DNA from: Candidatus Iainarchaeum sp.
GTDB lineage: Archaea; Iainarchaeota; Iainarchaeia; Iainarchaeales; UBA10191
Assembly: GCA_030649735.1 (NCBI GenBank)
Contig: JAUSFL010000044.1
Location: 14,038-78,037, forward strand
Reading direction: 5' to 3'
DNA length: 64,000 nt
The notes below the pieces were generated by a model, which was not told where the DNA came from, did not search any database, and was given only the letters and a program-made list of their open reading frames with translations. The translations under genes and the position numbers were made by a program. Numbering within the stretch: the first letter of the stretch is position 1; each line of letters starts with the position of its first letter. Below, in pieces: positions 5,780 to 48,671 of the stretch.

Positions 5780-6220
5780 ATGGAAGTAAAAATCACAAGC
5801 CCAAAATACAATGAAATACTCAAAGTAGGCCAAAAAGTCAAGATAACGTGGACTGCCGATAGCGTTACAGAAAGAGCCGCAACCACAATTGAAATAACTT
5901 GCTATGGCCCGCGTGCAAAGCTTAGCGGCGATATATCTGCAGCAGATATTCCCGCACCCGCAAAACTAAAGTTAATATTCGAAGCTTTGCCAGAGAAAAC
6001 TTTATCTTACGATTGGGTTGTTCCTACCGCAAAAGAATGTAATATTGTTGAAGAAGAAAAAAAAAGTTGGAATGCATGGCACACTTTTTTTAATATTGGG
6101 CCAGATCTTGAATATCATTGGCCAAAAGATCCAGAAACAAGATTTACAATACGAATTGCGGTTCAAAATAAAGAAGAGCCCTGCCAGTCAGACTATATCC
6201 AATTCCAAGTTAAGGAATAA
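5780..6220 (+). CDS. Hypothetical protein
   Basis: 146-aa ORF; its N-terminal ITSP..G..V.ITW pattern is reminiscent of Kre9/KNH1-like domains. Confidence 0.4.
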   Translation: MEVKITSPKYNEILKVGQKVKITWTADSVTERAATTIEITCYGPRAKLSGDISAADIPAPAKLKLIFEALPEKTLSYDWVVPTAKECNIVEEEKKSWNAWHTFFNIGPDLEYHWPKDPETRFTIRIAVQNKEEPCQSDYIQFQVKE

Positions 6221-8666: not shown

Positions 8667-8698
8667 TTTTAGTATTCTGGGGGCATTTTTTTAAAAAG

Positions 8699-8710
8699 TG
8701 TAGTGCCTAA
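8699..8710 (-). repeat. Dispersed element copy (reverse orientation), intergenic between TatD and the downstream ORF
   Basis: TGTAGTGCCTAA, exact reverse complement. Confidence 0.8.
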
Positions 8711-8720
8711 CAATTATGTC

Positions 8721-11418: not shown

Positions 11419-12765
11419 TCAGCGCTTCATGCTGTAACTGTCCTTGAATTCTTCAAAGTCTTCCTGCGGGCCTTTTGGCTTGATTATTTTTGGCAAGACT
11501 TTTTGGATAAAAATTATCAAAGCCAATACTGCCGCAATTCCAACCGCGAATTGCACGAAAATGTCAGTGTTCATTGGCTGGTCTATTGGAGCCTGTTCTT
11601 TAACTCCTGCCTTTAGAATCAACCCAATGCTTTGCTTTGCTTTTTGCGCTTCGGAAATTGCAGCGTCATAGTTTGTTTTCTGGAATGCCAGTTCTGCATT
11701 GGTCCAATAGCCTGAAAGCTTTTTGACTTCAGACTGGCTTTTCCACAAACTCACTTTGGTTTCTGACAAGACATCCAATACAGCGGTTTTGAGTATTGAA
11801 TAGTCTTTTGTTGTGGTTTTGAATGAAGCGTCTTCTGAATAAAGCTCGTTGTATGCCTTTACGCGCTTTAGCCTTGATTGCAAGGAGTCAGAGAACACAA
11901 TTGAATAGGAGATTGCTTCCTTTAATGCCTGCTGGACTGCAAGAATGCTTGCGTTAGCCGCTTGCTTTCTTGAAGAAATAGCGCTCTTGTTCAACGCGCT
12001 TGGAGGCTCTGCAAAGGCCATTAACTGCTGTTTTACTGTAGAGTCCAGGTTTGCGTCGGCAATTGCCTTGCGCAAGGCAGAAACCTTGCTGTCATAATCT
12101 ATTGCTTTTTGCTCTAAAGAACTCATGTCGTCCTTTACTGCTTCAAACGCTAATACAACATTGCTTGATTTTTCAGGCGTTGGATTGCTTGAAAAGTCTG
12201 TTTCTTCAGTCAATGCTGCAGAAATTCCTTTCCCAATTGACTTGCAGTCTTCCTGCATTGAGGCAAGCGCAATTTTCATTTCATCGGCCTTTGATTTTAT
12301 CGCCAGAATTTTGGTTTCTGAAGAGACCAGCGAAATGTCTGACTCTTGCTCTTGCTTTAAAACGCGGTTCAGGCTTTCAAAAAAGTCAATGTTTTGCGGC
12401 GTGAAAAACCACTGGCTTTGCAAGGCTTCGCTTTTAGTGTTCAAGAACCTCAGGAAGTATGCTGTTTTGAATAATTGCTCATTGGTTGTTTTGGATTCTA
12501 AAACTTCAGGCAGTGCTTTTGAGGCATTGACTGAAACAAACCCTGCAATTAAAGTGCCTGAAGTTATTGTGACAACCCAGTATTTTGAGTTTGAGGCAGT
12601 AATTTGGACAGGGGGCGAGATTTCAGCGCTTTCTCCAGTTCCCAAAAAGCCTGAAGATCCGACAAAATCGACTGCCTGGCTTGCTGAAATTCCGGCAAAA
12701 GAAAATGCGGGAATTATTGCAAAAGCCAGCAAAATCGCAAAGAATTTTGAGTTCGCAAAAAGCAT
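11419..12765 (-). CDS. Secreted/membrane-anchored coiled-coil protein (signal peptide plus C-terminal TM)
   Basis: N-terminal hydrophobic signal and a C-terminal TM helix followed by a basic tail. Confidence 0.5.
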   Translation of the reverse strand: MLFANSKFFAILLAFAIIPAFSFAGISASQAVDFVGSSGFLGTGESAEISPPVQITASNSKYWVVTITSGTLIAGFVSVNASKALPEVLESKTTNEQLFKTAYFLRFLNTKSEALQSQWFFTPQNIDFFESLNRVLKQEQESDISLVSSETKILAIKSKADEMKIALASMQEDCKSIGKGISAALTEETDFSSNPTPEKSSNVVLAFEAVKDDMSSLEQKAIDYDSKVSALRKAIADANLDSTVKQQLMAFAEPPSALNKSAISSRKQAANASILAVQQALKEAISYSIVFSDSLQSRLKRVKAYNELYSEDASFKTTTKDYSILKTAVLDVLSETKVSLWKSQSEVKKLSGYWTNAELAFQKTNYDAAISEAQKAKQSIGLILKAGVKEQAPIDQPMNTDIFVQFAVGIAAVLALIIFIQKVLPKIIKPKGPQEDFEEFKDSYSMKR

Positions 12766-12821
12766 AATTGACCAAAATTTTAAGGAAATTCTTGTTTATA
12801 ATGGTTTTCAGGGAAAAAGCC

Positions 12822-19438: not shown

Positions 19439-20077
19439 ATGCCATCACGGAATGAGCAAGATTATTTGAGATACATTTACGAACTTCAGTCAAAGAACAA
19501 CCGGGGCGTCAAAGTTGGCGAGATTGCTAAAGAATTGGGAATTTCAAAGCCCAGCGTTTCTGAAATGCTTTCAAAATTCAAAAAGGCCGGCCTTGTTGAA
19601 TTCAAGAATTACGGGCCAGTCTCATTGACAAAGCGGGGAATCAGGCAGGCAAGGATTGTCCTTAGAAAGCACAGAATTCTAGAGGTTTTCTTTGCAAGGC
19701 TTTTGGGATTGAAAAAGTCATTTCATGACGAAGCGCATGAGATAGAGCACGCAATTTCTGAAGTTGCAAGCGACAGGCTTGAAAAGCTTTTGAAAAACCC
19801 GAAAGAATGCCCTGACGGGAGGGAAATCCCGGCAAAGCAGGCAAAAGTAATGACATTAAATTCAGCGCCATTGAACAGGCAATTGCGCGTGCTTTTTTCA
19901 AGGATTGAAAGAAAGGAAGAGCAGAGCAGGATTAACGCGTTGGGCCTGGTCCATGGGGAAAAAATCAGTGTGACAAAAAGAATTTCCAACGGCCCTTTGA
20001 TAATCAAGGTTAAAAAAAGCGAGATTGTTCTTGGAAAGAACATTTCATCCCTGATTTTTGTCGAGGCAGACAAATGA
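19439..20077 (+). CDS. DtxR/MntR-family metal-dependent repressor fused to a C-terminal FeoA-like domain
   Basis: N-terminal wHTH (GEIAKELGISKPSVSEML) plus metal-binding helices; C-terminal SH3-like FeoA segment. Confidence 0.85.
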   Translation: MPSRNEQDYLRYIYELQSKNNRGVKVGEIAKELGISKPSVSEMLSKFKKAGLVEFKNYGPVSLTKRGIRQARIVLRKHRILEVFFARLLGLKKSFHDEAHEIEHAISEVASDRLEKLLKNPKECPDGREIPAKQAKVMTLNSAPLNRQLRVLFSRIERKEEQSRINALGLVHGEKISVTKRISNGPLIIKVKKSEIVLGKNISSLIFVEADK

Positions 20078-25070: not shown

Positions 25071-25496
25071 ATGATTGACTGGCAGCAATTTGACAAGGGA
25101 ATTTTTCTCGTTAATGTTCTGGGAATAATCTATGACAAGAAGTCAAAGAAAATCCTGATTGGAAAGAGGGAAAACGACCCTTTCACCAAGGAATTGGCCT
25201 GGTGCTTTCCTGGCGGAAGGCCGGCTTATGGAAAAAGCACTGGGGAAAGCCTTGTTGAAGAAGTCAGGAAAAAGACCGGCATTGAAGTGAAAGTGAAAAA
25301 GATTGTTTTCGCAAGGCCGTTTCCTGAAAAAAGGGAATTCTTGCTGCTTTATTATTACTGCGAATTCCGAAAAGGAACCGCAAAAGCGGGCGATAAAATC
25401 ACAGAATTAAAATGGGTCAGGCCTTCAGAAGTCAAAAAATACTTCACTACTTCAATAGCCGATGAAGTGCTTGATTTCTTGCAGAAATTAAAGTAA
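25071..25496 (+). CDS. Nudix-fold protein with degenerate Nudix box
   Basis: GGRPAYGKSTGESLVEEVRKKTGI aligns to the Nudix box, but REx2EE is replaced by EEVRKK. Confidence 0.55.
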   Translation: MIDWQQFDKGIFLVNVLGIIYDKKSKKILIGKRENDPFTKELAWCFPGGRPAYGKSTGESLVEEVRKKTGIEVKVKKIVFARPFPEKREFLLLYYYCEFRKGTAKAGDKITELKWVRPSEVKKYFTTSIADEVLDFLQKLK

Positions 25497-26921: not shown

Positions 26922-27356
26922 TTGAAAGTTTGCGTGGGAAAATTAATGGATAATTTTCGGGTTGCTGTAAAAGCATTGATTTTGGACGACGAAAACAATT
27001 TGCTGCTTGTCAGGCGAAGCCATGATGACAAAGTGGCCGCCGGGCTTTGGGAAATTCCTGGCGGAAGGCTGGAGCTTGGCGAAAGCCCTTTTGATGGATT
27101 AAAGAGAGAAGTGATGGAAGAAACTGGAATTCCAATAGATATTGGGGCTCCAGTAAACGTGCAGCATTTCACAAACACGGACAAGGTTGTAATAACAATG
27201 ATTATTTTCAAATGCAAGGCGCTTTCAAAGGAAGTAAAGCTTGTTGACGGAGAGCTTTCAGAATTTGGCTGGGTGAAAATTCCTGAAGCAAAAGCCAAAA
27301 TTACAAAATACTTCCATAAGGAAATAGATATTCTGGAAAAAATGGCTGGTGTTTAG
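26922..27356 (+). CDS. Nudix hydrolase
   Basis: Canonical Nudix box GGRLELGESPFDGLKREVMEETGI. Start may be the ATG at 26946. Confidence 0.8.
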   Translation: MKVCVGKLMDNFRVAVKALILDDENNLLLVRRSHDDKVAAGLWEIPGGRLELGESPFDGLKREVMEETGIPIDIGAPVNVQHFTNTDKVVITMIIFKCKALSKEVKLVDGELSEFGWVKIPEAKAKITKYFHKEIDILEKMAGV

Positions 27357-27358
27357 AA

Positions 27359-29248
27359 ATGCCGAAACTAAAATGCGGGATTGAAGTGCACCAGCAGCTT
27401 GATACTGGAAAATTGTTCTGCCGCTGCCCGAGCTTTTTGCGCGATGACAAGCCAGAATTCACTGTTGAAAGAAAGCTTCGTGCTGTTGCATCTGAAATGG
27501 GCGAATTTGACGCTGCAGCCTTGGAAGCAATGCAAAAGAATTATACGTTTGTTTATGAAGGACACCACGAAAACGCATGCCTAACGGACATTGACGAATC
27601 CCCGCCAATGCCAGTTGATAAAGAAGCCTTGAGAATAGTCCTAGAAGTTGCATTGCTTGCAAAATCAACAGTGCTTGACAAGGTTTTTGTAATGCGAAAG
27701 GCAGTTGTTGACGGAAGCAACACTTCAGGCTTCCAAAGAACAGCGCTTGTCAGTACTGGCGGAAGCCTGAAAATCAATGAAAAAAAAAGCGTGGGCATTC
27801 AGACAATTGCGTTGGAAGAGGACGCTTGCAGGCCTTCAAAGAAAGACGAGGAAAACAAGAGAATTTACTACCGTCTGGACAGGCTGGGAATTCCATTGAT
27901 TGAGCTTGCGACAGCGCCAGACATTGAAACTCCAGAAGAGGCAAAAGAGACTGCATTGGCCATTGGAAAATTATTGAGGATTACTTGCAAGGCAATGAGG
28001 GGCTTGGGGACAATAAGGCAGGACTTGAACATCAGCATTGAAGGCGGAGCAAGAATTGAAATCAAGGGCTGCCAGGATTTGGAAATGCTTGAAGAGCTTG
28101 TAAGGCGGGAAATGCAAAGGCAGGAAAAGCTTTTGGAATTGAAGAAAATTCTTTCTTCAAAAGCAAAGCCCGAAGATTTTGGAAAATTCGAGATTTTAGA
28201 GCTTTCGGAATTTTTCAAGAATTCTGAAAACAAGCTAGTGAAGGGAAAAAAGATTTTTGGGGCAAGAATTCCAAAAATGAAAGGACTGCTTGGAATTGAA
28301 TTACAGCCCGGAAGACGGTTTGGAAGCGAATTGTCAGACCAAGTGAAGGCAAAGGCAGGCTTGAAGGGATTATTGCACAGCGACGAGCTGCCGAATTATG
28401 GAATTACTGAAGCAGAGAAGAGTCGCATTGCAGGCAAGCTTGATATTCCTCTTGACGATATACTGCTCCCTTATGGCGACGCTTTCATTCTAGTGATTGC
28501 AGAAAAAGAAGCAGCGGAGAAAGCATTCAAAGCAATCAGCGCAAGGATTTTGCAGGCTTTCAAAGGAGTTCCTGAAGAAACCCGCAATGCTTTAGAGAAC
28601 GGAAACACTGAATATTCGCGCCCTTTGCCCGGAGCTGCTAGAATGTATCCTGAAACCGACATTGCTTCTTTTGAAACTTCAGAAAAAGAACTCAGCGAGT
28701 TGGAGAAAGAGCTGCCTTTATGGCCGCAAGAACGCGTGAGGCTTTACACTGAAAAATTCGGGGTTTCAAGACAGCTTGCAGAAAAGATGTCATTGGACAA
28801 TTACGCAATCTTTTTTGAAAGCCTTGCGAAAAAAGGCTTTGATGCAACGCAAGCCGCTGTTTTGCTTTTGGAGGGATTGACTCAGCTTTCAAGGGAAGGA
28901 ATCAATGTTGAAAAATTTACGGAGCAACAGATTGAAGAATCATTGCAGCTTTTGAAAGATAAAAAACTGACCAAAGAGACAGTTCTTGAATTCTTGAAAT
29001 TACGGAGCAAAAATCAGTTCAAACTTGCAGCGGAATTGCTAAAAGAGTTAGGCACTACAAGTGTTTCAGAAAAAGAAGTGCAAAAAACAATTGCCGCAAT
29101 TGTTGCAAAAAGCTCTGCGCTCATTAAGGAAAAAGGCGACCGGGCAATTTCAGCATTGATGGGTGAGGCAATGAAAGAACTGAAAGGAAAAACTGACGGG
29201 GCAACAATCTCGCGAATTCTAAAAGAAGAAATTGCAAAGCTCAAATAA
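27359..29248 (+). CDS. gatE: Glu-tRNA(Gln) amidotransferase subunit E
   Basis: N-terminal KCGIEVHQQLDTGKLFCRC, AspRS-like insertion, C-terminal GatB/YqeY tail. Contains an in-frame copy of the dispersed 16-mer at 29045-29060. Confidence 0.9.
   Translation: MPKLKCGIEVHQQLDTGKLFCRCPSFLRDDKPEFTVERKLRAVASEMGEFDAAALEAMQKNYTFVYEGHHENACLTDIDESPPMPVDKEALRIVLEVALLAKSTVLDKVFVMRKAVVDGSNTSGFQRTALVSTGGSLKINEKKSVGIQTIALEEDACRPSKKDEENKRIYYRLDRLGIPLIELATAPDIETPEEAKETALAIGKLLRITCKAMRGLGTIRQDLNISIEGGARIEIKGCQDLEMLEELVRREMQRQEKLLELKKILSSKAKPEDFGKFEILELSEFFKNSENKLVKGKKIFGARIPKMKGLLGIELQPGRRFGSELSDQVKAKAGLKGLLHSDELPNYGITEAEKSRIAGKLDIPLDDILLPYGDAFILVIAEKEAAEKAFKAISARILQAFKGVPEETRNALENGNTEYSRPLPGAARMYPETDIASFETSEKELSELEKELPLWPQERVRLYTEKFGVSRQLAEKMSLDNYAIFFESLAKKGFDATQAAVLLLEGLTQLSREGINVEKFTEQQIEESLQLLKDKKLTKETVLEFLKLRSKNQFKLAAELLKELGTTSVSEKEVQKTIAAIVAKSSALIKEKGDRAISALMGEAMKELKGKTDGATISRILKEEIAKLK
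29048..29059 (+). repeat. Dispersed element copy inside gatE, in frame (LGTT)
   Basis: Exact 12-mer within the 16-mer GAGTTAGGCACTACAA. Confidence 0.8.
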
Positions 29249-29255
29249 AAAAGAA

Positions 29256-29266
29256 TTAGGCACTAC
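29256..29266 (+). repeat. Dispersed element copy (11/12) just after the gatE stop
   Basis: GAATTAGGCACTACTG. Confidence 0.7.
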
Positions 29267-29280
29267 TGAGTTGAAAAACA

Positions 29281-29943
29281 ATGAAGCATTTTCCAATAGC
29301 TAAAGAATTGCATACTGATGTTCTGGCTCAAAAGTACGGGCAAATTTCAGCAAAAGTATTAAGGCATGATGAAAAAGCAAGGGAAGCGCACTTGATTGAT
29401 TCTAATGGAATTTCAAGAACTTTTGCAATAACGCTCTTTCCCAAAAGCATTCCCAAGCAAATCAAAAAGATTAATGAACAAATAAAGAATGGCAGTCCAA
29501 TTGGCGAAACTTTCAGGCAGAACGGCTTTGAAGTCAGAAAGAATGTTTTAAGCGTTAACATACTTCAAATTCCAAAATGGCTAAAGAATGATTTTAGAAC
29601 TGGAAAAGCAAGTGCAAAATACAGGATTTCTGAATTTTACGCAAAAAGCCAAAAATCAAAGCCAGTAATTTATGGGACAGTCATTGAAATTTACTCCCCG
29701 GACTTTAGGGAAGCCAAAATAAACCAAATTGACTTGATTCAATTAAGTGCTCCAACAGAAGCATTGAAAAAAGCAGGGTTTTCAATGCAGGAAATCTGGG
29801 AAAAAATCGGCGATGCTTCATTAAAATCCCAGCAAGCACTGAGAGAAAAAGCCAACCCAAAAGCCGGAAAACTAGTCAGAGAAATGGAAAATGAAATAAT
29901 GGATATTTTATCACTGCCTCACCAAAGCATTAGAAAGAGTTAG
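29281..29943 (+). CDS. Hypothetical protein (cassette-like ORF bounded by two direct copies of the dispersed element)
   Basis: 220-aa ORF; copies at 29256 and 29940, the latter providing its stop codon. Confidence 0.5.
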   Translation: MKHFPIAKELHTDVLAQKYGQISAKVLRHDEKAREAHLIDSNGISRTFAITLFPKSIPKQIKKINEQIKNGSPIGETFRQNGFEVRKNVLSVNILQIPKWLKNDFRTGKASAKYRISEFYAKSQKSKPVIYGTVIEIYSPDFREAKINQIDLIQLSAPTEALKKAGFSMQEIWEKIGDASLKSQQALREKANPKAGKLVREMENEIMDILSLPHQSIRKS

Positions 29944-29949
29944 GCACTA
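29940..29949 (+). repeat. Dispersed element copy (10/12) supplying the TAG stop of ORF 29281-29943
   Basis: AAAGAGTTAGGCACTAT; the stop codon TAG is at 29941-29943. Confidence 0.7.
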
Positions 29950-29969
29950 TTTTTTTAGAAATCAAGAGC

Positions 29970-30407
29970 TTACACAAATGCGGAAATCAAAACAATCAAA
30001 TACCACAAAGCCAAGTTTGTAATGCTTAGCATGCCTAATTGCTTTTTTGCTTTAAAGAATTCTTCAGAAGGCTTTTCGCCGGGCTTTGCAAGCTTTTGCA
30101 TTTTTTTAACCCTTAAAAAAATCAAGGCTCCAATTGCAACTATCAAAACCACCAAAGCATGCTTTATTAGTAGTAAATTCGTGTCAAGCGGCCATTTTAC
30201 AAGGCTTGTTACTGCAATTCCGGAAATTATGAGCAAAACCAAGCCAGCCCAGATTAGTTTTGACAGCGCGGGAATTATTTTCATCAAGCTTGCGGCAACT
30301 TCCGGATTTTTCTCCGCCTTCATTGAAATAATTGCGGCTGCTGTTGCTCCGCCAACTCCCCAGGCCAATCCAATAAAGTGCAGAAAATTGAAAATTTCTA
30401 AAAGCAT
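29970..30407 (-). CDS. Four-TM membrane protein
   Basis: Hydrophobic helices throughout. Confidence 0.45.
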   Translation of the reverse strand: MLLEIFNFLHFIGLAWGVGGATAAAIISMKAEKNPEVAASLMKIIPALSKLIWAGLVLLIISGIAVTSLVKWPLDTNLLLIKHALVVLIVAIGALIFLRVKKMQKLAKPGEKPSEEFFKAKKQLGMLSITNLALWYLIVLISAFV

Positions 30408-30525
30408 GCTTTGATTAAAAGCGCTTTAGTTTTTAATTTTTCCTGCCAAAAAGCCCGAAAAAGCGGGATAAAAAGAAAATAAAATGAAAAGCCGCAAAAA
30501 ACGGCTTTTCAAAAACTGGTTCAAA

Positions 30526-31002
30526 TCATTTTTTCTTGAACACGTTCAAGGCAAGGAATGCTCCAATAACTCCCAAGATTGCGCCAATTATTATTGCCAC
30601 AATTATGCCGATTATTAGGCCGACTATTCCAATTGCAGCTCCAAGGCCTGCAGCTGCTGGGTTTGAGCCAATGCCTGCCGAAATCAATGGCGCAACAAGC
30701 AATAACTGCAAAATTCCGCCAATAATTCCGGAAATTACTGCAACAACTGCTCCTGCAACAGCTCCTGAAACATATGCTTCAGCGGCTGGCGCTTTCTTTG
30801 CGGCTTCAAGGCCTGCCCAAATTACAACTACCCAAATCAGCAATCCAATAAGTCCTGCCAATCCAATCGAGCCAACTGCGGCAAGCGGGTTTCCTCCAGC
30901 GCCAGCCCAGGCAGCGTAAGTAATTGCAATCACGACTAATTCCAAAACAATGGCCAGTATTATTTGAGTTTTAACCGCCATTGCTGTTTTCATTATATCC
31001 AT
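30526..31002 (-). CDS. Gly/Ala-rich polytopic membrane protein
   Basis: AxxxG/GxxxG-rich TM segments. Confidence 0.45.
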   Translation of the reverse strand: MDIMKTAMAVKTQIILAIVLELVVIAITYAAWAGAGGNPLAAVGSIGLAGLIGLLIWVVVIWAGLEAAKKAPAAEAYVSGAVAGAVVAVISGIIGGILQLLLVAPLISAGIGSNPAAAGLGAAIGIVGLIIGIIVAIIIGAILGVIGAFLALNVFKKK

Positions 31003-31132
31003 TAAAATAATCCCTCCATTAATGTAATAGAAATAAACAACGAGCCCGGCTTAATAAAACTTTGCGGGTTAAAAAACAAGGGTTTTTTTCAATATTTTAA
31101 ACCATTCTGCCGGCCATTCTCAGTTATCAAAT

Positions 31133-31215
31133 ATTCAAAATTACGGAGCAAAAACTCTTTCAAACTTGCAGCGGAAATTCTAAAAGAGTTAGGCACTACA
31201 ATTGTTTCAGAAAAA
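31133..31215 (+). repeat. Decayed duplicate (~85% identity by eye) of gatE internal segment 28996-29078, centred on the dispersed element
   Basis: Window: ATTACGGAGCAAAAACTCTTTCAAACTTGCAGCGGAAATTCTAAAAGAGTTAGGCACTACAATTGTTTCAGAAAAAAAG. gatE: ATTACGGAGCAAAAATCAGTTCAAACTTGCAGCGGAATTGCTAAAAGAGTTAGGCACTACAAGTGTTTCAGAAAAAGAAG. Confidence 0.75.
31189..31200 (+). repeat. Dispersed element copy within a decayed duplicate of the gatE internal segment
   Basis: Exact 12-mer; flanks match gatE 28996-29078. Confidence 0.8.
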
Positions 31216-31223
31216 AAGCCAAA

Positions 31224-31565
31224 TTATAAGAATTTTACAAACTTGTTGTTTTCATTGACTAAAATCTTTTTTGCTTTCACTGGCTTGCTTGAAAGCTCAA
31301 AGCCCATTATTATCACGCGTTCTCCGGCTTTTATCAAGTGCGCTGCAGCTCCATTAATGCAAACAATTCCCGAACCTTCATTTCCGGGCATTATGTAAGT
31401 TTCAAGCCTTACCCCAGAACTCTTGCTAACAACCAGTGCTTTCTCCCCACTCAAGAAACCGGCTTTTTTCATAAGGGCAGAGTCAATGGTAATGCTTCCC
31501 TCATACTCTACATTAGCTTCTGTTACAGTCGCATCATGAATTTTAGACCTTAGCACCCAGCGCAT
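31224..31565 (-). CDS. panD: Aspartate 1-decarboxylase, pyruvoyl-dependent (bacterial type)
   Basis: Self-processing site EYEGSITID (Gly-Ser), KIHDATVT, INGAAAH; 113 aa. Confidence 0.82.
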   Translation of the reverse strand: MRWVLRSKIHDATVTEANVEYEGSITIDSALMKKAGFLSGEKALVVSKSSGVRLETYIMPGNEGSGIVCINGAAAHLIKAGERVIIMGFELSSKPVKAKKILVNENNKFVKFL

Positions 31566-31631
31566 TCCAAAACACCAATTATTTTCTTAAAGTATTTTGT
31601 TGCAATTAGTATTTAAGAATTTAAGTAAAAG

Positions 31632-31643
31632 TTAGGCACTACA
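31632..31643 (+). repeat. Dispersed element copy supplying the (minus-strand) TAG stop of ORF 31639-32826
   Basis: AAAGTTAGGCACTACAAA; the minus-strand stop is the reverse complement of CTA at 31639-31641. Confidence 0.8.
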
Positions 31644-32826
31644 AATTTGAAATTTTAACTACTCCCCATTCAAGAATTTCTCGCGAATCATAATATAGTG
31701 GTTTCCTACCATAATAAATCCAACCAGTTATTTTGTAAATGTGGTTTTTTGGAAGCCGCAGTTTTTCAAGTATTCTATCTGCGCTCAATCCAGTACTTCG
31801 TAATTGAATAGTTTTTTCATAAGTTTCCCATTCTTTCTTTAATCCACTGGAGTTTTTTAGAAATGTTTCAACTGCCTTAACAAATTTGGCTTGCTTTTTC
31901 TCCGCATATTTGAAAGGAATTTCCTGAAATAATTTGACAATATTTGGGCTTCGTCCATCAATATAGAATGAGATTTTCTGTGAAAGAGTTCCATCCTTTC
32001 TTAATGTCCTATTTTTCTCTCCAGCAATTGGTGAAGAAGTAACTCCAAACTCAGCCAACAAGGATTTTACTTGTTCATGAAATTTTATTAGCTCATTTAC
32101 CTTTGACTCAACTTTATGCAATCCAAAAGTTGCAGAAGTAAATGCATTCTTTGCTCTAATAAAAGGGCATTGCAACTCGTTGCCAAAAAGAACACTCAGA
32201 AAAGCGCGTTTTATCTCCTTATCAGAATTCATTACCCAATCAGGAACTTTTGTTGAAGAAGAAACTTTATCCCCAACAGGAGCGCCCGCCAAGAATAATA
32301 ATCTTGCAAGCGGAGAACTATTAACATTTAAACGATAATCACCCCCTTTTGGATAAGTTCGATATAGTACCCTATTTTTTATTTTTCTTATTTCTGACTC
32401 CGAAGAATTAATTGCCAAATGCGGTTCGATTTTGTATTGCTTGAACAATAATGATGCAATCAACTCCAAGTCTTCTTTCTCGCCAAAAAGGGAAAAGGCG
32501 CCCAAATGTTTCATTAAATGGCCATCACCAAATAGAAATGCAGATAGCTCTGTAAAAAGAAGAAAACTTTGAGTATCTTCTACTTTTAATGGAATCAATC
32601 TAATTGACTTAAGATAATTCAAGGCTCTAATTGGAAAAGGCACTCTTTTGTCAGATAACCAACTGTATATTGTCCTTTCAGGATGCTTTATCAAGCGCGA
32701 TATTTCAGAAATAGTCTTTATTGAATTTTGCAATTCTTTAGCTTGAATATACTTTTCTGCCAGGTTTAATTGCCGGTCTCCAAAAGAAGCAAGAAATTTA
32801 TTCTCATCAACAATTATTTCTTCCAT
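31639..32826 (-). CDS. Free-standing LAGLIDADG-like (double-motif) homing-endonuclease-like protein with N-terminal HTH
   Basis: LSAFLFGDGHL and a second degenerate KRAFLSVLFGNEL motif ~130 aa later; N-terminal HTH-like segment. The stop codon lies inside a dispersed element copy. Confidence 0.4.
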   Translation of the reverse strand: MEEIIVDENKFLASFGDRQLNLAEKYIQAKELQNSIKTISEISRLIKHPERTIYSWLSDKRVPFPIRALNYLKSIRLIPLKVEDTQSFLLFTELSAFLFGDGHLMKHLGAFSLFGEKEDLELIASLLFKQYKIEPHLAINSSESEIRKIKNRVLYRTYPKGGDYRLNVNSSPLARLLFLAGAPVGDKVSSSTKVPDWVMNSDKEIKRAFLSVLFGNELQCPFIRAKNAFTSATFGLHKVESKVNELIKFHEQVKSLLAEFGVTSSPIAGEKNRTLRKDGTLSQKISFYIDGRSPNIVKLFQEIPFKYAEKKQAKFVKAVETFLKNSSGLKKEWETYEKTIQLRSTGLSADRILEKLRLPKNHIYKITGWIYYGRKPLYYDSREILEWGVVKISNL

Positions 32827-34106: not shown

Positions 34107-35192
34107 TCATGAATTCCTGACATACTCCAACGACAAAATGCCGTTAAGTTTTGGGGTTTCTGGATTCCTAATATTTTCCCCTTTAGGCGTATCAGTGCTA
34201 CCCTTCAGCACATCTCTGTCTGTGCTGAATCGAGATATGCCTTGGCGATACAAACTTGCAATATTGAATCCTGCGTTTGCATCGGCATTCTCAACCACCC
34301 CACATTTCGTGCAGTGGAATTCTTTTAGTTTTCTGTTCCTTGCTTCTATATGACCGCACTTACTACACCTTTGCGAAGTATATTGCGGTTCAACATAGGC
34401 AACAGGCACTCCGAACTTTTTGGATTTGTATTCTATCATTTTTTGCAACTGATAAAAACTCCAAGAGTTTATGGAATACCTCTGCTTTCTTCTCATTTTT
34501 GTAGTCTTTCGAATATCTTTCAATTCTTCAAGTACTATAATTGCTTTGCTATTTTGTGCTTCATCAATCAATTTCTTGCTTATCTGGTGATTAATATTCC
34601 TAATGATTCTGCTCTCTCTATCTTTGATTTTCTTAACAAGAGAATGCTTGCCATTCTTTTGAAGTGACCGTCTTATGTTTTTATATTTTGTGTGAATATG
34701 ATTGCACTTCTTACCTAGCTTAAGCACTTTTCCAGTATCAATATTTGAAGCTACAAGGACATGCTTAATTGTATTTCTATCCACACCAATCACTTGCTTT
34801 GGTTTGTATTGACAAGGTTCTTCGTATGAATATGACACATAAGCAAAAGTCTCCCCAATTTCAACTTGGTTTATCTTCTTAAATGAAATATTAAAGCGAA
34901 TTGGAAGTGTTAATTTCAGACAAGGTATTATTATCTCTTTTTTTGTGAATCTAATTCCTTGAGAAGGAACAGTCAGTTTTACTGAATTTACAGTTTTGAT
35001 TGTTTTATTTTTGGCATACTTTCGGAGGATTTGGTTGGCAATCACTGATTTCAAGCCAATATGTTTTACATCTTTGCTTGATAATGTTCTCTCTCTTATT
35101 GCATACTCAGCTATTTTCTTTGCCAAGCTAAGTTCTCTGCTAAAGTTCTGATAATGCTTTATTTTGAGAGTCAATATCAAAAAAGACCACAA
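34107..35192 (-). CDS. tnpB: TnpB (IS200/IS605 OrfB-family), solitary
   Basis: RuvC-I IGVDRN, E in IVLEELK, zinc finger CSKCGH...CTKCG. Only 21 nt separate its stop from the convergent ldcA stop. Confidence 0.85.
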   Translation of the reverse strand: MWSFLILTLKIKHYQNFSRELSLAKKIAEYAIRERTLSSKDVKHIGLKSVIANQILRKYAKNKTIKTVNSVKLTVPSQGIRFTKKEIIIPCLKLTLPIRFNISFKKINQVEIGETFAYVSYSYEEPCQYKPKQVIGVDRNTIKHVLVASNIDTGKVLKLGKKCNHIHTKYKNIRRSLQKNGKHSLVKKIKDRESRIIRNINHQISKKLIDEAQNSKAIIVLEELKDIRKTTKMRRKQRYSINSWSFYQLQKMIEYKSKKFGVPVAYVEPQYTSQRCSKCGHIEARNRKLKEFHCTKCGVVENADANAGFNIASLYRQGISRFSTDRDVLKGSTDTPKGENIRNPETPKLNGILSLEYVRNS

Positions 35193-35301: not shown

Positions 35302-36099
35302 CTACCAGTTTACTCTTTTACTCATAAATTCATAAAACAAGTAAATTTGGGCAAAGCCTTTATACTCGTGCCATAATTCTTCTGCTTTTTGCAAGTACTG
35401 GTCGTTTTTTGCTTCTTTTCCTTGAAAGTAAACTTTGCTCATTGCGCGCTTCATCCAAACATCCAATGGAAATCCATTAGTGTCGCCAAAGCCATAAAGC
35501 AGAATGCATTCTGCAATTTTTTCTCCAATGCCTGGGCAGGAAAGCAGGAATTCTTTCAGTTCTGCAGAGTTCTTGAATTTCAAATCTCCCCTTTGCAAGA
35601 CCTTCAGTGTAGTGCCTAACAAGTACTGGTCGCGAAAACCGCACTTTACTTTTCGAAAATCCTGCACTGTGCATTTTGCAAAGTCTTCAGGCATTGGAAA
35701 TTCATGCAGGCCTTCCACTTTTGCCCCGTAAGCATTCATTAATTCCTGCACGTTCATTCTGATTATTGGAATGCTCCTGTTCGAGCTTAGCAGGAAGCAG
35801 ACTATTGTTTCCCACAAGTCGCTTTGCGTCAAGCGCAGGCCTTTGTAATCCTTGACTGCCTGCTTCATGAAAGAGTCTGTTGAAATTTTCGCAAAAACCA
35901 TTTTGTAATTGTCATTGCTCCGTAAAGTGAACTCTGCAAACTTTGCATTATTGGTTTTCAGTTTTCCTTGCTCTTGCATTAACTCGACAATTTTTCCATT
36001 CCGGGCCCTTTTGAAAACTCCGCGGTCTTCCTGCCAGACAAACTGTGGAGTTTGCCCTGAAAGCATTGTCAAACCAAGATTCAATGACTTTGGCAGCAT
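35302..36099 (-). CDS. HhH-GPD DNA glycosylase (Ogg/AlkA-like)
   Basis: LLSCPGIGEKIAECILLYGFGDTNGFPLDVW HhH-GPD motif. Start uncertain (36099 or 36066); the ORF track extends to 36201, overlapping the divergent DJ-1 gene. Confidence 0.7.
   Translation of the reverse strand: MLPKSLNLGLTMLSGQTPQFVWQEDRGVFKRARNGKIVELMQEQGKLKTNNAKFAEFTLRSNDNYKMVFAKISTDSFMKQAVKDYKGLRLTQSDLWETIVCFLLSSNRSIPIIRMNVQELMNAYGAKVEGLHEFPMPEDFAKCTVQDFRKVKCGFRDQYLLGTTLKVLQRGDLKFKNSAELKEFLLSCPGIGEKIAECILLYGFGDTNGFPLDVWMKRAMSKVYFQGKEAKNDQYLQKAEELWHEYKGFAQIYLFYEFMSKRVNW
35608..35619 (-). repeat. Dispersed element copy (reverse) inside the ogg-family gene, in frame on the minus strand (LGTT)
   Basis: TGTAGTGCCTAA exact. Confidence 0.8.
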
Positions 36100-37253: not shown

Positions 37254-38525
37254 ATGGAAGAAAACGTTTTCGACCCGCATGGTTTGACCAAGCGAATGGA
37301 AGCAGAATTACGAAAGATTTCCTTGCTTCCAGAACCCAATAAATCTCTAATTCTGGATTTTTTGCACAATTACAGGTACAAAAAGAAGTCTTTGAGCTTG
37401 GCCAGGCGTTGTCGTTTGGCAAGCCAGTTTCACTTTTTTGCCAAGCTTTCAGGAAAGCCTTTGAATCCTTTTAGAGAACAGGATGCTCGAAGCTTGGTTG
37501 GCTTGATTGAAAGGTATGAGAATTCTCGAAAGCCTTATTCTTTGCATACTTGGAAAGAAATCGTAAAGAATGTTAAGATTTGGGTTAAATGGGTTAATCC
37601 TGAAGACTACCCTAACGTTTTGTTGAAGTGTAAAGATGTTTTAACAGTCCAAAACCCTTACTCAGACCCTAAAAGAAAAGCCAGTCTTGAGGATTTCTTG
37701 ATTACTGACGAAACCTTCCTGAAGCTTTTGAATGTAGCCAAAGACCAACAAAAAGCCATTCTAGCCATTGGATTTGGCTGCGGTTCAAGAACTGGAGAGC
37801 TCTTGGGTTTGCGTAGAAAAGACTTGAAATTCAATCCTGACGGAACAATATCGCTTTCTTTTCTTGAAAGCAAAACTTTTCCCCGAGAAAATATTTTATT
37901 AAGTCCAGACTTATCCTGTTACGTGCGAGAATGATTTGAAAAAAGCCCGTTGAAAAGCCAGAATGACTTCTTTTTCTGCACTGTCAACGGCCCGCCAAAA
38001 CCACTATCTCAAAACGCTCTTGGAATAATCCTAAAACGCCTGGCTGTCAAAGCCGGCTTAGGAAAATGGAAGAAAGTCAAGTCAAGCAATGGCATTTGGT
38101 ATTCTCACTATCAAGGCCAAAGAATCTATTTCACTAAATTCCGGCGTTCTGCAGCAACTTGGGCTTTAAAAAACTTGAAAAGCCACGCCTTAGCTGGCAA
38201 AAGAATCTGGGGTAACGAAGCTTCAAGCATGATTAAAATTTACTCTGGATTAGTTTCTGAAGACGCTAACGAAGCTTACAGGGAAGCTTTAGGTTTAGCA
38301 CAACCAACTCAAGTCGAAAACATTCTGAAGCCTAAAACCTGCTTCAAATGCCATACAATGCTTTCTCCAACTCAAAGCCTTTGCCCAAACTGTAAAATAG
38401 AAACAGACACTTCAAAATTAATAGATACTCAATTACTGAAAGAAGCAGAAATGACAGCCTTAAGGGAAGAAATGAAAATGCTCCAAACAGCACTAGCGCA
38501 AATAACCCTAAAAATGCAAAGTTAG
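37254..38525 (+). pseudogene. int: Tyrosine recombinase/integrase interrupted by one in-frame TGA (37932-37934); N- and C-parts in the same frame
   Basis: Core-binding N-domain; catalytic box GCGSRTGELLGLRRKDL (Arg) upstream of the stop; KFRRSAATW and KIYSG (Tyr) downstream. Junction reads YVRE*FEKSPLKSQ; the stop is a single transition from TGG (Trp). Strong SD AGGAGGT 8 nt upstream. Confidence 0.75.
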
Positions 38526-40405: not shown

Positions 40406-41749
40406 TTGAATGATTCTATGCAAAAAAGATTGACGGAGAAAATCATACAAGTTGTTCTGAAAGATTTGATTCATCAGCCCACCAATAGTAAAAGCCGCGC
40501 TGAATTGATTTTAGACTGCTTGTTTGAAGGAAGAAAGGGGATTAGCTGGGATTTTCGTTGCGATTTGTATTTCTTTTTTCTGAAAACGATTGTTACTAAA
40601 ATGATGAAAGAGAACCGGGAGCTCATTGATACTGTGAAAAAAGGTTACTGCGATTATTCTATTTTTAAAAAAGCGCTTAACAAGGCCCTCAAACTTTATC
40701 TTACCAGTATTGTGGAATATGGAATCACAACTCCCCAAAAATTTAGCTTTCCATTCCTTGTGGAATTTGAACTCACTAATAAGTGCAATTTGGCGTGTAA
40801 ACATTGTTATGCAAATGCTGGTAAAGAGCTGGCTGATGAAATTAATACTCAAGAAGCAAAAGAAATCCTTAACCAGCTAAACAATATAGGTGTTCCAATA
40901 GTCTGTTTCACTGGCGGAGAGCCCTTTCTAAGGGCAGACTTCTTTGAATTACTTGAACACTCTAATAAAATAGGCCTCTTGACTGTTATAACTAGTAATG
41001 GAACCTTGATTACAAAGGAAAGTGCAGCCAGACTCAAAGAATTGCAAGTGGAATATATTAGAATCAGCTTGGACAGTGCAACCCCTAAAACGCACGATTG
41101 GCTAAGGGGAATGCCAGGAGCCTACGAGCAAACCATTCAAGGAATAAAAAATTCTATCCAAGCTGGAATCAAAACCGGAGTCACTACAGTTTTGATTCAA
41201 GAAAACTCGTCAGAAATGGAACAAATGATAGAACTTTTGAGCCAATTAGGGTGTTCAGATTTTACTGTGTGCAGGTTGTTTCCATTAGGTAAAGGAAGTT
41301 CGTTGCAAAATAGTTTGCTTAACAAAGAAGAATTGAGTAAAGTGGAATCTCGCATTTCGGCAAAAGCAAAAGAGCACCCTAATCTTTTGATGAATCCTTT
41401 GACGCTGGAAGGCAGAATCCATTCAAAAAAAGACATGCTACGGAAAATAACAGACATGATTGGAGGCTGCCCTGCCGGATTAAACGTATGCGCCATTACT
41501 CCTAAAGGGGAAATAAAGCCTTGCGCGCTAATGTCTATAACCGCGGGGGATTTTAAAAAACAAAAGTTTGAAGAAGTCTGGAAAAACAGTCGGTTATTTA
41601 ATGAACTTCGGGATCGCTCGCTGCTTAAAGGAAAATGTTCCGCTTGCGAATTCAAATTTTCGTGCGGTGGTTGTCGTGCAACCGCATATGGTTATACTGG
41701 AGATTACCTTGAGACAGACCCCATCACATGCATGTTACGTATAAAATGA
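40406..41749 (+). CDS. Radical SAM enzyme with C-terminal SPASM domain and ~115-aa N-terminal extension
   Basis: CNLACKHC (CxxxCxxC) and a SPASM Cys cluster (CPAG...C...CSACEFKFSCGGCRA). Confidence 0.8.
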   Translation: MNDSMQKRLTEKIIQVVLKDLIHQPTNSKSRAELILDCLFEGRKGISWDFRCDLYFFFLKTIVTKMMKENRELIDTVKKGYCDYSIFKKALNKALKLYLTSIVEYGITTPQKFSFPFLVEFELTNKCNLACKHCYANAGKELADEINTQEAKEILNQLNNIGVPIVCFTGGEPFLRADFFELLEHSNKIGLLTVITSNGTLITKESAARLKELQVEYIRISLDSATPKTHDWLRGMPGAYEQTIQGIKNSIQAGIKTGVTTVLIQENSSEMEQMIELLSQLGCSDFTVCRLFPLGKGSSLQNSLLNKEELSKVESRISAKAKEHPNLLMNPLTLEGRIHSKKDMLRKITDMIGGCPAGLNVCAITPKGEIKPCALMSITAGDFKKQKFEEVWKNSRLFNELRDRSLLKGKCSACEFKFSCGGCRATAYGYTGDYLETDPITCMLRIK

Positions 41750-41770: not shown

Positions 41771-43123
41771 GTGAAAAGAATACAGAACCTGATTGGAAGC
41801 GCTATAATCAAATCCGCGTTATTTGATTTGTCCAAACCAATAGGGGTTTTAAAGAAAAGCCGTGCTGAACTCATTTTAGACAGACTCTTTGAAGAAAAAA
41901 AAGAGATTGATTGGGACATTAAATGCCGAATTTATTTTTTTCTCTTGAATCAAATAATGGCTAAAATGATTAAAGAAAATAAGATCACGATGCAAACTGC
42001 AAAGAAGTTTTTTCAGGATTACCCTATTTTTAGAAGAATACTCAATAAAACGCTTAAACTATTTCTTCAGAGCATAACTGAATACGGGATTACTATGCCG
42101 CAAAAACTTAGTGCGCCATTATTGGTAGAATTTGAGTTGACTAATAAATGTAATCTTGCATGCAAACACTGTTATGCAAATTCTGGAAGCAAATTTGCAA
42201 AAGAACTGGATTTAAGAGAAGTAAAAGAAATCCTGAACCAAATCAACCAAGCCGGCGTTCCTTTAGTGTGCTTTACTGGCGGCGAACCACTTCTAAGGCC
42301 GGACTTCTTTGACATTTTGAGCCATGCTAAGCGCATTGGTCTTGTTACTATTGTTACAACCAATGGGACTCTAATCACAAAAGAAAAGGCCAGAAAGTTC
42401 AAAGAGCTTGGAACAGATTATATCCGCATTAGTTTGGATGGGGCAAGTATAAAAACACATGATTGGCTGCGTGGAATTCCTGGCGCGTATAAAAGAACCG
42501 TTCAAGGAATCAGAAATTCCATTGAAGCAGGAAACAAAACCGGAATAGGCACAGTTCTAATTCAAGAAAACGTGCATGAACTTGAAAACTTGATTGATCT
42601 GGCAGCTCAATTAGGTTGCACTGACATAAACGCAATTCCGCTCATTGAAAGCGGTCGGGCAAAAAGCACTTTGAATAAAGAGATTCATGAAATGAGCAAT
42701 GAACAAAAAAAGAAAAACGAAGAGTTGATAGTTGCAAAAGCCAAAGAATATGAGGGAAAAATGCTGCTTAATTTTTTGGATTTAGATCATATTCGCAGGG
42801 TAAAAGGTTCATCAAAGCATTTTGTTGGTTGGGCTCAAGGTGGTTGCGCTGCAGGGCGAACAGTTTGTGTCATAAACCCCAATGGAGAAATTCGGCCATG
42901 TATCACTCTTAGATTGAATGTCGGAAGCCTGCAAAAACAAAAGTTTGTAAAGATTTGGAAAAATTCCAAAATAATGGAAGAACTTAAAAACCGTTCTCTT
43001 GTAAAAGGAAGTTGCGGCAAATGTGAATCCAAGTATACTTGTGGGGGATGCCGCGCTGCAGCTTATGATAAATTTGGGGATTATCTTGAATCAGACCCTG
43101 GTTGCTATGTGCGATACTTTTGA
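41771..43123 (+). CDS. Radical SAM/SPASM enzyme, paralog of 40406-41749
   Basis: Same architecture (CNLACKHC; C-terminal CGKCESKYTCGGCRA); recognisably similar along its length. Confidence 0.8.
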   Translation: MKRIQNLIGSAIIKSALFDLSKPIGVLKKSRAELILDRLFEEKKEIDWDIKCRIYFFLLNQIMAKMIKENKITMQTAKKFFQDYPIFRRILNKTLKLFLQSITEYGITMPQKLSAPLLVEFELTNKCNLACKHCYANSGSKFAKELDLREVKEILNQINQAGVPLVCFTGGEPLLRPDFFDILSHAKRIGLVTIVTTNGTLITKEKARKFKELGTDYIRISLDGASIKTHDWLRGIPGAYKRTVQGIRNSIEAGNKTGIGTVLIQENVHELENLIDLAAQLGCTDINAIPLIESGRAKSTLNKEIHEMSNEQKKKNEELIVAKAKEYEGKMLLNFLDLDHIRRVKGSSKHFVGWAQGGCAAGRTVCVINPNGEIRPCITLRLNVGSLQKQKFVKIWKNSKIMEELKNRSLVKGSCGKCESKYTCGGCRAAAYDKFGDYLESDPGCYVRYF

Positions 43124-47614: not shown

Positions 47615-48033
47615 AAACATGGAAATAAGGTTGTTACTGAATAAAAAAATAGCACATTCTAATGCCAAAATTAGTGTATAATGATTTGATAATTATTATA
47701 GTGGGTCTTTTAGATATCTTCTTTCAAAATAATCAATTAATTGTAAATTACAAGTTTAGAACTATGATTACATTTGTTTATGATAAAAAATTGTTAAAAC
47801 ATCAACTGAAAATCCAAAATATGATTAATTAAGTCTGGATTGAACTTCGAATTTCTTGTATATTCTATGGGTTTTTAAGTGTAGGAATTGCCTTGCTTTT
47901 AGCTGATTTCTAGTAATCCTTGTTGTTTTTTCTATTAATTAGACTAGATTAGCTTTATTCTTGGCAAAAAGAAATAATTAAGCTTATTTGCTGGTTTTAG
48001 TTTTTGCAGTTTCTTTTTTTCTGGGTTATTTTT

Positions 48034-48044
48034 TGTAGTGCCTA
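48034..48044 (-). repeat. Dispersed element copy (11/12, reverse) in the repeat-dense non-coding block
   Basis: TTTTGTAGTGCCTAT. Confidence 0.65.
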
Positions 48045-48198
48045 TGTCTCTATTTTTGCTTTTGTTTTCGGGACATTTACAAGACATTTTTTGGGTTTGC
48101 GGGACAATTAATTGGCAATTTTATAGTTGATTTTTTTGATTCGTATTTTTTTTGCCGACATTTTCCCGACATTTTTTCACTTTTCCCGACACCCATTT

Positions 48199-48210
48199 TG
48201 TAGTGCCTAA
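48199..48210 (-). repeat. Dispersed element copy (exact, reverse) in the repeat-dense non-coding block
   Basis: TTTTGTAGTGCCTAA. Confidence 0.8.
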
Positions 48211-48296
48211 TGCTGCTTTCAATTTTCCTATTTTCTGCTTAGTGCCATTTTTGTGCCATTTTTTTACTTTGCGTGTCATTCAAAGCTTGCATCTTC

Positions 48297-48307
48297 TGTA
48301 GTGCCTA
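48297..48307 (-). repeat. Dispersed element copy (11/12, reverse) in the repeat-dense non-coding block
   Basis: CTGTAGTGCCTAT. Confidence 0.65.
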
Positions 48308-48482
48308 TGCTCCGCTTTATTCACTTGCTTGCCAGTAACTGAGTTAACTCATGCTTAAATAATTCAATGTAGAAGGTATGTCTAGAGAGTTTTCAAAACT
48401 GCTTTATAAAAGCAGAAGTAAGGACTTCTCATGAGAAACCCGACAACGACAATAAGAAGGCCGGAACAGAAATTAATGCAAG

Positions 48483-48671
48483 GTGAAGAAATTGGAACTA
48501 CAGCAAACTCTTACAGTTAGGAAGAATGAGCAAATGACGGCAAAGCAAGTGGCCTTGTTGCTGGCGAGAAAGACAGATTTTGAGTTAAAGCGAGAGTTTC
48601 CGGTTTTTTGGGAATTGCTTGCAATAAAAAGCAAAAGTTGGAAAAGTGTTGATGATGAGTTTGAATATTGA
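48483..48671 (+). CDS. Small hypothetical protein
   Basis: 62-aa ORF at the edge of the repeat block. Confidence 0.3.
   Translation: MKKLELQQTLTVRKNEQMTAKQVALLLARKTDFELKREFPVFWELLAIKSKSWKSVDDEFEY

Follow-up and report, generated by a model that had tools for sequence, protein, structure and literature searches.

How did a piece of a housekeeping gene, with a short dispersed motif inside it, come to lie in a spacer between two other genes, and did the motif bring it there? This question is raised by the DNA downstream of gatE in the window, as we call the whole stretch of 64,000 nucleotides analysed here, from whose first letter all positions are counted. The protein encoded by gatE has a 100% identical NCBI counterpart in a Candidatus Diapherotrites MAG. 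The piece lies in a 221-nt spacer between the start of the gene of a 158-aa membrane protein and the stop codon of panD. The gene, the segment concerned and its copy are as follows.

27359-29248, + strand: gatE, Glu-tRNA(Gln) amidotransferase subunit E, 629 aa (Pfam GatB_N/GAD/GatB_Yqey).
28980-29074, + strand: parent segment in gatE, encoding TVLEFLKLRSKNQFKLAAELLKELGTTSVSEK, residues 541-572, at the start of the C-terminal GatB_Yqey tail.
29047-29060, + strand: motif copy M1 in gatE, GTTAGGCACTACAA, read as LGTT.
31121-31215 (strong core 31138-31215), + strand: decayed, non-coding copy of gatE codons 541-572, from homology, polarised differences and the absence of an ORF.
31188-31201, + strand: motif copy within the duplicate, unchanged in sequence.
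31211-31217, - strand: run of A7 where gatE has A5, closing the copy on the right.

A repeat search of the 64-kb window returned 28980-29074 and 31121-31215 as a direct repeat of 95 nt with 85% identity and a spacing of 2141 bp, and at this offset 81 of 95 positions were identical without gaps. When the window was compared with itself by blastn, the core 31138-31215 matched 28997-29074 over 78 nt at 91.0% (E 4.5e-24); the only other hits were neighbouring or tandem gene pairs (40490-41206/41855-42571 and 62738-62876/63857-63995) and a 28-nt palindrome at 19575-19602. The first-pass annotation had described an 83-bp match to gatE 28996-29078 at roughly 85% identity. The homology stood, and its intergenic coordinates were 4 nt out of register, since 28996-29078 pairs with 31137-31219 (72/83 identical without gaps) and not with 31133-31215. 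The motif had also been placed in the middle of the duplicate, and it is found in the right third (31188-31201), with homology extending 67 nt to the left of the 14-mer GTTAGGCACTACAA and about 14 nt to the right. Pairwise alignment found similarity well beyond the motif, with 67 of 81 positions identical outside the 14-mer. The flanks left of 31121 and right of 31219 scored no better against gatE than shuffled sequences, so the homology ends sharply on both sides, and searches to the left of 31121, to the right of 31219 and from panD to the next motif copy, M3, brought up no longer hidden homology. On the right, 8 nt separate the 95-nt repeat from the panD stop codon, or 4 nt if the gapped alignment is taken.

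The first alternative to be weighed is that the similarity arose by chance, by low-complexity convergence or by an assembly artefact. Nothing but the A-rich composition speaks for it. The local alignment of the copy with gatE scored 124, whereas shuffled sequences averaged 20 and did not exceed 30, the E-value is given above, and an independent Logan assembly of SRR13727527 was identical over 15.6 kb spanning both copies; moreover, the collapse of repeats does not yield copies that are 85-91% identical. This reading, which we hold to be almost certainly wrong, is refuted by the E-value, the shuffle test and the second assembly, and the sequence comparison confirms 31121-31215 as a genuine partial copy of gatE.

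The direction of copying was obtained by aligning both stretches with the orthologous gatE segments of three related lineages. Among the 16 differences, 12 were derived in the copy, 3 were derived in gatE and 1 was ambiguous. The copy was identical to the resident gatE at 81 of 97 aligned positions and to the gatE of the three related lineages at 58-67 of 97, and TTCAAACTTGCAGCGGAA, a lineage-specific stretch of the resident gatE, was also present in the copy. This closeness, the shared stretch and the polarised differences together indicate that the copying ran from gatE to the spacer, that the source was the lineage's own gene and that the spacer copy is the one that decays, as the earlier reading of a decayed duplicate of an internal gatE segment had it. 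No start codon lies ahead of the copy in the frame equivalent to that of gatE, and no listed + strand ORF runs across it. Homology to a limited segment, lack of an intact reading frame and evolution free of the constraint on the parent, by which partial gene duplicates are recognised, were all found. On sequence evidence the segment is an ordinary gene-fragment relic, a known kind of object, and no function of its own could be demonstrated for the copy.

"Filler" DNA copied from a nearby template at junctions of illegitimate recombination or insertion is known from templated break repair. The copy resembles gene-fragment relics and filler DNA in its length (about 95 nt), its sharp ends, a template 2 kb off, its place between acquired blocks and its non-coding state, and, like such relics, it decays faster than its parent. 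It is unlike them in that a conserved dispersed motif is intact within it and in that the junction mechanism here is one that we infer. A template/variable pair of a diversity-generating retroelement was considered and rejected, as only 6 of the 16 differences fall at an A of the copy and no reverse transcriptase lies among the neighbouring genes.

The surroundings of the copy show what kind of place received it. Between gatE and ORF395 lies a variable slot with the following contents and right border.

29281-31002: lineage-specific block 1, consisting of ORF220 (+ strand), a DUF2269 protein at 29970-30407 (- strand) and a 158-aa protein at 30526-31002 (- strand) (Pfam, tblastn).
31224-31565, - strand: panD, aspartate 1-decarboxylase (Pfam Asp_decarbox), lineage-specific block 2.
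31639-32826, - strand: ORF395, convergent with gatE, right border of the variable slot (NCBIfam, synteny).

ORF220 belongs to no known family, the 158-aa protein is a membrane protein with no Pfam or NCBIfam match, and the 145-aa membrane protein at 29970-30407 matched only DUF2269 in Pfam, together with weak, sub-threshold NCBIfam hits to membrane-protein models. No panD homologue exceeded 73% identity, the nearest being at 70-73%, and the few named hits came from Woesearchaeota, Patescibacteria, Nanoarchaeota, Aenigmarchaeota and Bilamarchaeaceae, not from Diapherotrites; the low identity and the named hits in other phyla indicate horizontal acquisition of panD. By tblastn, no counterpart of ORF220, the DUF2269 protein, the 158-aa protein or panD was present at the gatE loci of three related lineages, L122, L123 and L125 (metagenome contigs, this locus only), and a backbone of ligase, gatD, gatE, orf71 and OGG is conserved among the relatives' loci. 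In L122, gatE is followed by a Nudix gene and then by motifs at 5843 and 5886, 43 nt apart from start to start, the second of which overlaps the stop codon of the ORF395 orthologue. In distant Diapherotrites an ORF395 homologue is likewise convergent with gatE, with MFS, PGI-ROK-RpiA-AIRS or PGI-NosD between them, so each Diapherotrites lineage examined holds different genes in this slot. Comparison of gene content places the copy at the joint of two acquired blocks, the membrane-protein pair and panD, within an old insertion-prone slot. Closer strains were absent from the collections: all neighbouring proteins checked were singleton clusters, and the nearest GatE was 79% identical.

Gene content also varies elsewhere around gatE. 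Nudix genes at 25071-25496 and 26922-27356 flank gatD in the window, and the single Nudix gene of L122 (5443-5847) lies after gatE, its protein having 43% identity over 63 aa to the second Nudix of the window; L125 has a mechanosensitive-channel gene between gatD and gatE. The borders of these Nudix and mechanosensitive-channel gene changes are without motif copies. Between a peptidase S66 gene and OGG, the window carries a TnpB-like gene (Cas12f1-like_TNB domain, 34107-35192, - strand) that is missing from the corresponding spot in L122, which suggests a lineage-specific IS insertion.

A second piece of gatE was found in another lineage. In L123 at 12716-12808 (also in L124, L193 and L194), a gatE-tail relic of about 80 nt lies with a terminal motif behind an inserted gene, ORF280. 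It reads ..RKELEGKADGAAISKILKEEIGKLKQKS*, the TAG of the motif at 12795 being its stop codon, and it was identical at 66 of 80 positions to the gatE end of the window and at 48 of 66 to the current gatE end of L123 itself. The two pieces differ, being internal in the lineage of the window and terminal in L123, and together they show that insertions 3' of gatE leave gatE pieces in at least two lineages. A further candidate relic, ahead of the terminal motif of L122, was rejected because only 10 nt were shared, which is not significant.

This architecture recalls integration into the 3' ends of genes, as is known for some prophages and islands. In Escherichia coli, e14 and phage 21 integrate into the 3' end of icd and duplicate that end, and 3' fragments of tRNA genes flank genomic islands. 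Here too, lineage-specific DNA is bracketed by direct repeats that come from the 3' part of a housekeeping gene, the proximal one remains within the functional gene, and the L123 lineage has the full pattern at gatE. The two copies could accordingly be the attL and attR direct repeats of an element that integrated in the 3' part of gatE and brought a replacement gatE end. Direct repeats 2141 bp apart that flank DNA absent from the relatives' loci would fit this, as would the order in L123 of current gatE end, ORF280 and a gatE-tail relic closer to other lineages (66/80 vs 48/66). However, integration of this kind should have left the displaced last ~170 nt of gatE, and no homology was found beyond 31219 or on the far side of panD; the distal copy in the window is internal and lacks a displaced gene end. 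No integrase or other recombinase was detected in the enclosed genes, and the gatE tail is not more foreign than the rest, with ~76% identity to L122 over the last 62 residues (hand count) against 79% overall. An extra deletion, or replacement by panD, would also be needed, and we consider att repeats a quite improbable origin of the pair.

The role of the motif is the harder part of the question. Besides the copies in gatE and in the duplicate, three lie in the slot, and the window as a whole holds several more.

29255-29268, + strand: terminal motif M2' (ATTAGGCACTACTG), 6 nt past the gatE stop codon and 12 nt ahead of the ORF220 ATG.
29939-29952, + strand: motif variant GTTAGGCACTATTT, whose TAG is the ORF220 stop codon, with a T-run after it.
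31631-31644, + strand: motif copy M3, overlapping the ORF395 stop codon in antisense and conserved in L122 (5886-5899).
5476-5489, 29047, 29255, 29939, 31188, 31631 and 38521, + strand: motif copies in the window.
8698-8711, 35607-35620, 48033, 48198, 48296 and 48689, - strand: motif copies in the window.

The motif GTTAGGCACTACAA is represented in the window by 9 exact 11-mers, TAGGCACTACA, against 0.00 expected, and 13 copies are counted when the flanks of the core TAGGCACTAC are relaxed. In four ORFs of the window it is read in the same frame as LGTT, and it also provides stop codons: those of ORF220 and the ORF at 37950-38525 and, in antisense, that of ORF395. The exact 14-mer of M1 stands at the orthologous gatE site in L122, L123 and L125, with diverged flanks, and M2' is orthologous to the motif that overlaps or trails the gatE end in L125, L123 and L122. 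Among GatE proteins, LGTT at the M1 position was confined to the clade P0001-P0012; the closest homologues of the window's GatE are 79% (P0002) and 71-74% (P0003-P0012) identical, and the others at most 59%. The gatE and OGG copies are orthologous in all four lineages, the 14-mer being identical in gatE and one base off in OGG, in a region that is otherwise ~70% identical, and the conserved bases include four synonymous third positions. A motif kept through synonymous sites while its surroundings diverge points to constraint at the DNA or RNA level. The first-pass annotation had dated the duplication to after gatE acquired its internal motif, and this agrees with our comparison: the motif is orthologous in four lineages, and the copy and the surrounding genes occur only in the lineage of the window.

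That annotation had gone further and seen in the duplicate the footprint expected if recombination at motif copies moves flanking DNA, taking it as support for a recombinogenic motif. The footprint does not agree with the alignment. A crossover at the motif predicts sharing on one side and the homology spans both sides, so the trace is not that of a motif crossover; of the 13 copies in the window, a single one has flanks in common with another; and motifs are missing from the borders of the nearby variable slots (gatD/gatE, orf71/OGG and the TnpB insertion). The broader notion of a recombinogenic motif was supported in part: inclusion of the motif is unlikely to be chance, and movement of flanks by recombination at motif copies did not emerge from the data. 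A random 95-nt piece would contain the full motif with a chance of ~1.7% if drawn from the whole window and 4.6% if drawn from gatE only, which makes a chance presence in the copy unlikely, at about 2-5%. The five copies between 29047 and 31644 (2.6 kb) are all on the + strand and separate ORF220, the membrane-protein pair and panD whatever the orientation of the genes. The five same-strand copies, the intact motif block and the low chance of inclusion suggest that the presence of the motif in the copy is not accidental. Selection that keeps the motif fits these facts equally well as recombination at the motif.

A stronger form of the idea is that the event was driven by the motif, its dispersed copies either seeding recombination or being cut by an enzyme, so that ectopic gene conversion ran from the copy inside gatE onto another motif copy in the slot and took along 67 nt on the left of the seed and 14 nt on its right; the same process would let gene cassettes enter between motif copies. 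A tract on both sides of a seed fits gene conversion, and the low probability of motif inclusion and the same-strand copies that border ORF220, the membrane-gene block and panD regardless of orientation would both be expected. Furthermore, the DNA specific to the window relative to L122 starts right after M2' and stops right before M3, and the L123 relic ends at a motif. Yet in L122 the two motifs of the slot are separated by just 29 nt, which would make an insertion anywhere between them look motif-bounded; in the window a single copy shares its flanks, and the other variable slots nearby lack the motif. The inserted DNA holds no recombinase, and the contexts of the motif elsewhere indicate a promoter-proximal site. 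We therefore regard a motif-driven event as doubtful, although it is a reading to be reckoned with.

ORF395, which abuts the motif, was considered as its partner enzyme. Its central region matches the endonuclease region of intein-containing RtcB, RFC and GyrA models in NCBIfam, and it is a free-standing protein resembling an intein-type LAGLIDADG endonuclease domain. Its close family was found only in Diapherotrites or unnamed archaeal MAGs and is always convergent with gatE; from this pattern ORF395 looks domesticated rather than mobile. The candidate was rejected on two grounds: the motif extends far beyond Diapherotrites, to which this family is restricted, and the family keeps its synteny instead of moving about.

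Integron attC sites offer another comparison. Like them, the motif copies stand in one orientation at the 3' ends of ORFs, sometimes over the stop codon, and the motif start GTTAGGC fits the GTTRRRY core; unlike them, most copies lie outside arrays. No GCCTAAC partner or hairpin was found beside the motif copies whose flanks were inspected, and the motif is not palindromic. An attC identity was rejected, as there is no inverse core, no palindrome and no integrase, and the neighbours are gatE and a LAGLIDADG-like protein.

What the motif does elsewhere was approached through its distribution. In a scan for exact matches in one genome per species, repeated hits were obtained in MAGs of Altiarchaeota, Micrarchaeota and Iainarchaeota of 29-60% GC, and the bacterial hits were single and presumably due to chance, in both cases among the matches listed; the consensus in these archaeal MAGs was AAAAGTTAGGCACTACAA(T). 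Three more distant Diapherotrites loci of 21 kb each had no motif copy, which makes the distribution patchy. About half of the copies in hosts are intergenic, and many lie 0-35 nt past a stop codon on the same strand or supply that stop. On IMGVR_UViG_3300009320_000030 (45.5 kb; L134, L152 and L155), a tailed-virus-like contig with portal, TerL and ParB-like proteins, 17 copies occur in the 28 kb examined, all on the gene strand. On this contig, 8-9 of the 17 lie 0-8 nt ahead of an ATG that lacks a Shine-Dalgarno sequence, which other genes there do have. The TerL is 44% identical to that of Altiarchaeum virus BK059162, in which no motif copy was found.

At least 120 contigs came out of a metagenome search for motifs paired at short distance. 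At the 72 low-GC loci among them, all thus selected for motif pairs, TATA-like 8-mers were 7-8 fold over-represented both at -20..-11 and at +10..+19 relative to the motif. A conserved layout of GlyRS promoters, consisting of the motif, 9 nt, TATTTAAAT, 7 nt, the motif again (reverse relative to the gene), 6 nt and the ATG, was found on the metagenome contigs L203 (680-2385), L290, L291, L224, L197 and L216, whose GlyRS has an unusual N-terminal extension, MAFIVKKKIHGKEYYYLNENKRVDGKVKTKTLAYLGK. The best reading of these contexts is that the motif is a putative promoter-proximal cis-element, operator-like and usable in either orientation. DNA uptake sequences (DUS/USS) share with it a 10-14-mer present about once per 5 kb in coding and non-coding DNA, DNA-level constraint through synonymous sites and occurrence in related lineages; the motif differs from them in its precise placement relative to TATA boxes and start codons, its position ahead of virus genes and its patchy occurrence within one phylum. 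No description of the motif was found in the literature, where a 10-mer of it appeared in no archaeal context. A promoter of Escherichia phage ECBP5, for a T7-type single-subunit RNA polymerase, is listed as TAGGCACTACAATA (PMC11617373). This equals the archaeal motif core with the common 3' flank; no single-subunit RNA polymerase was seen in the DNA examined, and the resemblance is probably a coincidence.

Such a site could be worth keeping. The copy may thus have been retained for a function, either as a motif site combined with a panD terminator or as a reverse-strand RNA antisense to gatE; its flanks would then have been carried along or would themselves belong to what functions. No change has occurred in the motif and the 8 bases next to it, in contrast to the decaying remainder (p 0.065 for the 14-mer, and 0.011 for a 22-nt block chosen post hoc). 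A TATA-like ATTATAAG lies ~23 nt downstream of the copy's motif, and motif copies elsewhere adjoin TATA boxes and start codons. The change from A5 to A7 makes a T7 run on the - strand, 7-13 nt past the panD stop codon. Oligo-T is a known archaeal termination signal, and by analogy the run is a possible terminator for panD. An RNA read from the reverse strand would match 78 nt of gatE mRNA at 91% complementarity. Against this, the motif is ~186 nt from the ATG of the 158-aa gene and points away from both flanking genes; the copy and its spacer matched no Rfam family, and neither strand of the copy folded better than shuffles (z +0.6 and +1.5), so a structured RNA is not indicated; and the statistics are weak and partly post hoc. 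Retention for a function as the full explanation seems unlikely to us, and some function of the copy is possible, given the intact motif block and a right end that is now an A7/T7 run past the panD stop.

The explanation that we prefer, and hold to be somewhat more probable than not, is a one-off ectopic copy of the resident gatE, made while the slot was filling and now decaying, with the motif as the probable cause of copying or retention. The short spacer between gatE and ORF395 would have been filling with acquired genes at the time of copying. A single event of templated break repair or non-allelic recombination would then have used gatE, 2.1 kb away, as template. The motif may have offered a seed of 14-22 nt of identity for templated repair or gene conversion, so that this particular piece was copied; alternatively, it may have been a useful site for which the piece was kept, its flanks being carried along. 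In either case the 14-mer in the copy would be gatE's internal copy of the promoter-proximal cis-element, and the motif is probably the reason why this piece was copied or kept. The relic behind ORF280 in L123 is a precedent, since it shows that insertions at the gatE locus do leave gatE relics. The sequences show the homology, its direction, the decay of the copy, its lineage specificity and its position at a joint of blocks; the mechanism of copying and any part of the motif in it are what we infer.

A combined role of the 14-mer, as a promoter-proximal site of DPANN, Altiarchaeota and their viruses and also as a seed of ectopic gene conversion and cassette capture, is rather doubtful in our view. 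It would seed such events as the longest stretch of dispersed identity that these small genomes contain, and the 3' slot of gatE, with motif copies on one strand, acquired genes and gatE relics in two lineages, would then be an archaeal analogue of the shuffling of regulatory cassettes in T4-type phages. PeSL (promoter-early stem-loop) cassettes in T4-type phages and the linker sequences of module exchange in lambdoid phages are border regulatory repeats that can act as recombination substrates. The likeness lies in a short regulatory repeat at gene borders, in one orientation, around variable genes; the motif differs in lacking a stem-loop and known circular intermediates, in its archaeal host and in that recombination is only proposed.

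The fragment is a dated marker, which identifies the 3' side of gatE in this Diapherotrites clade as a long-standing landing place of foreign genes, and the different gatE pieces carried by two lineages mean that insertions there leave gatE behind. The motif is the more remarkable object of the two. A single data point, with a chance of ~2-5%, ties a widespread and apparently undescribed promoter-associated motif to an event of DNA copying or retention, and one case is insufficient to establish the motif as a driver. If many motif-centred copies were to be found in whole genomes, the motif would become a candidate for what drives changes in gene order in archaea with very small genomes.

Several minor observations were made in the window. 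The neighbouring genes 40406-41749 and 41771-43123 show 68% nucleotide similarity over 724 nt, and 62738-62876 and 63857-63995 show 74% over 139 nt. A 900-nt intergenic region at 47669-48584 contains an AT-rich stretch, repeated ATGTCGGGAAAA/CCGACA-like words and three same-strand motif copies; it adjoins a DUF4325/HATPase gene pair, where GC content is low (35-36%) from 44 to 50 kb. For a reading of the motifs at 48.0-48.3 kb as a replication origin or ORB, the neighbouring ORFs tested included no Orc1/Cdc6. An integrated element might have its regulatory or replication region here. Right after the internal motif of gatE (29061-29130, GatE ~570-590), the window reads SVSEKEVQKTIAAIVAKSS, and the three closest lineages have xFSETELRKTIxQIVQKNS there. 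The EVQK form recurs in distant Diapherotrites, and GatE 570-590 may be a small recombination patch that starts where the homology of the duplicate stops.
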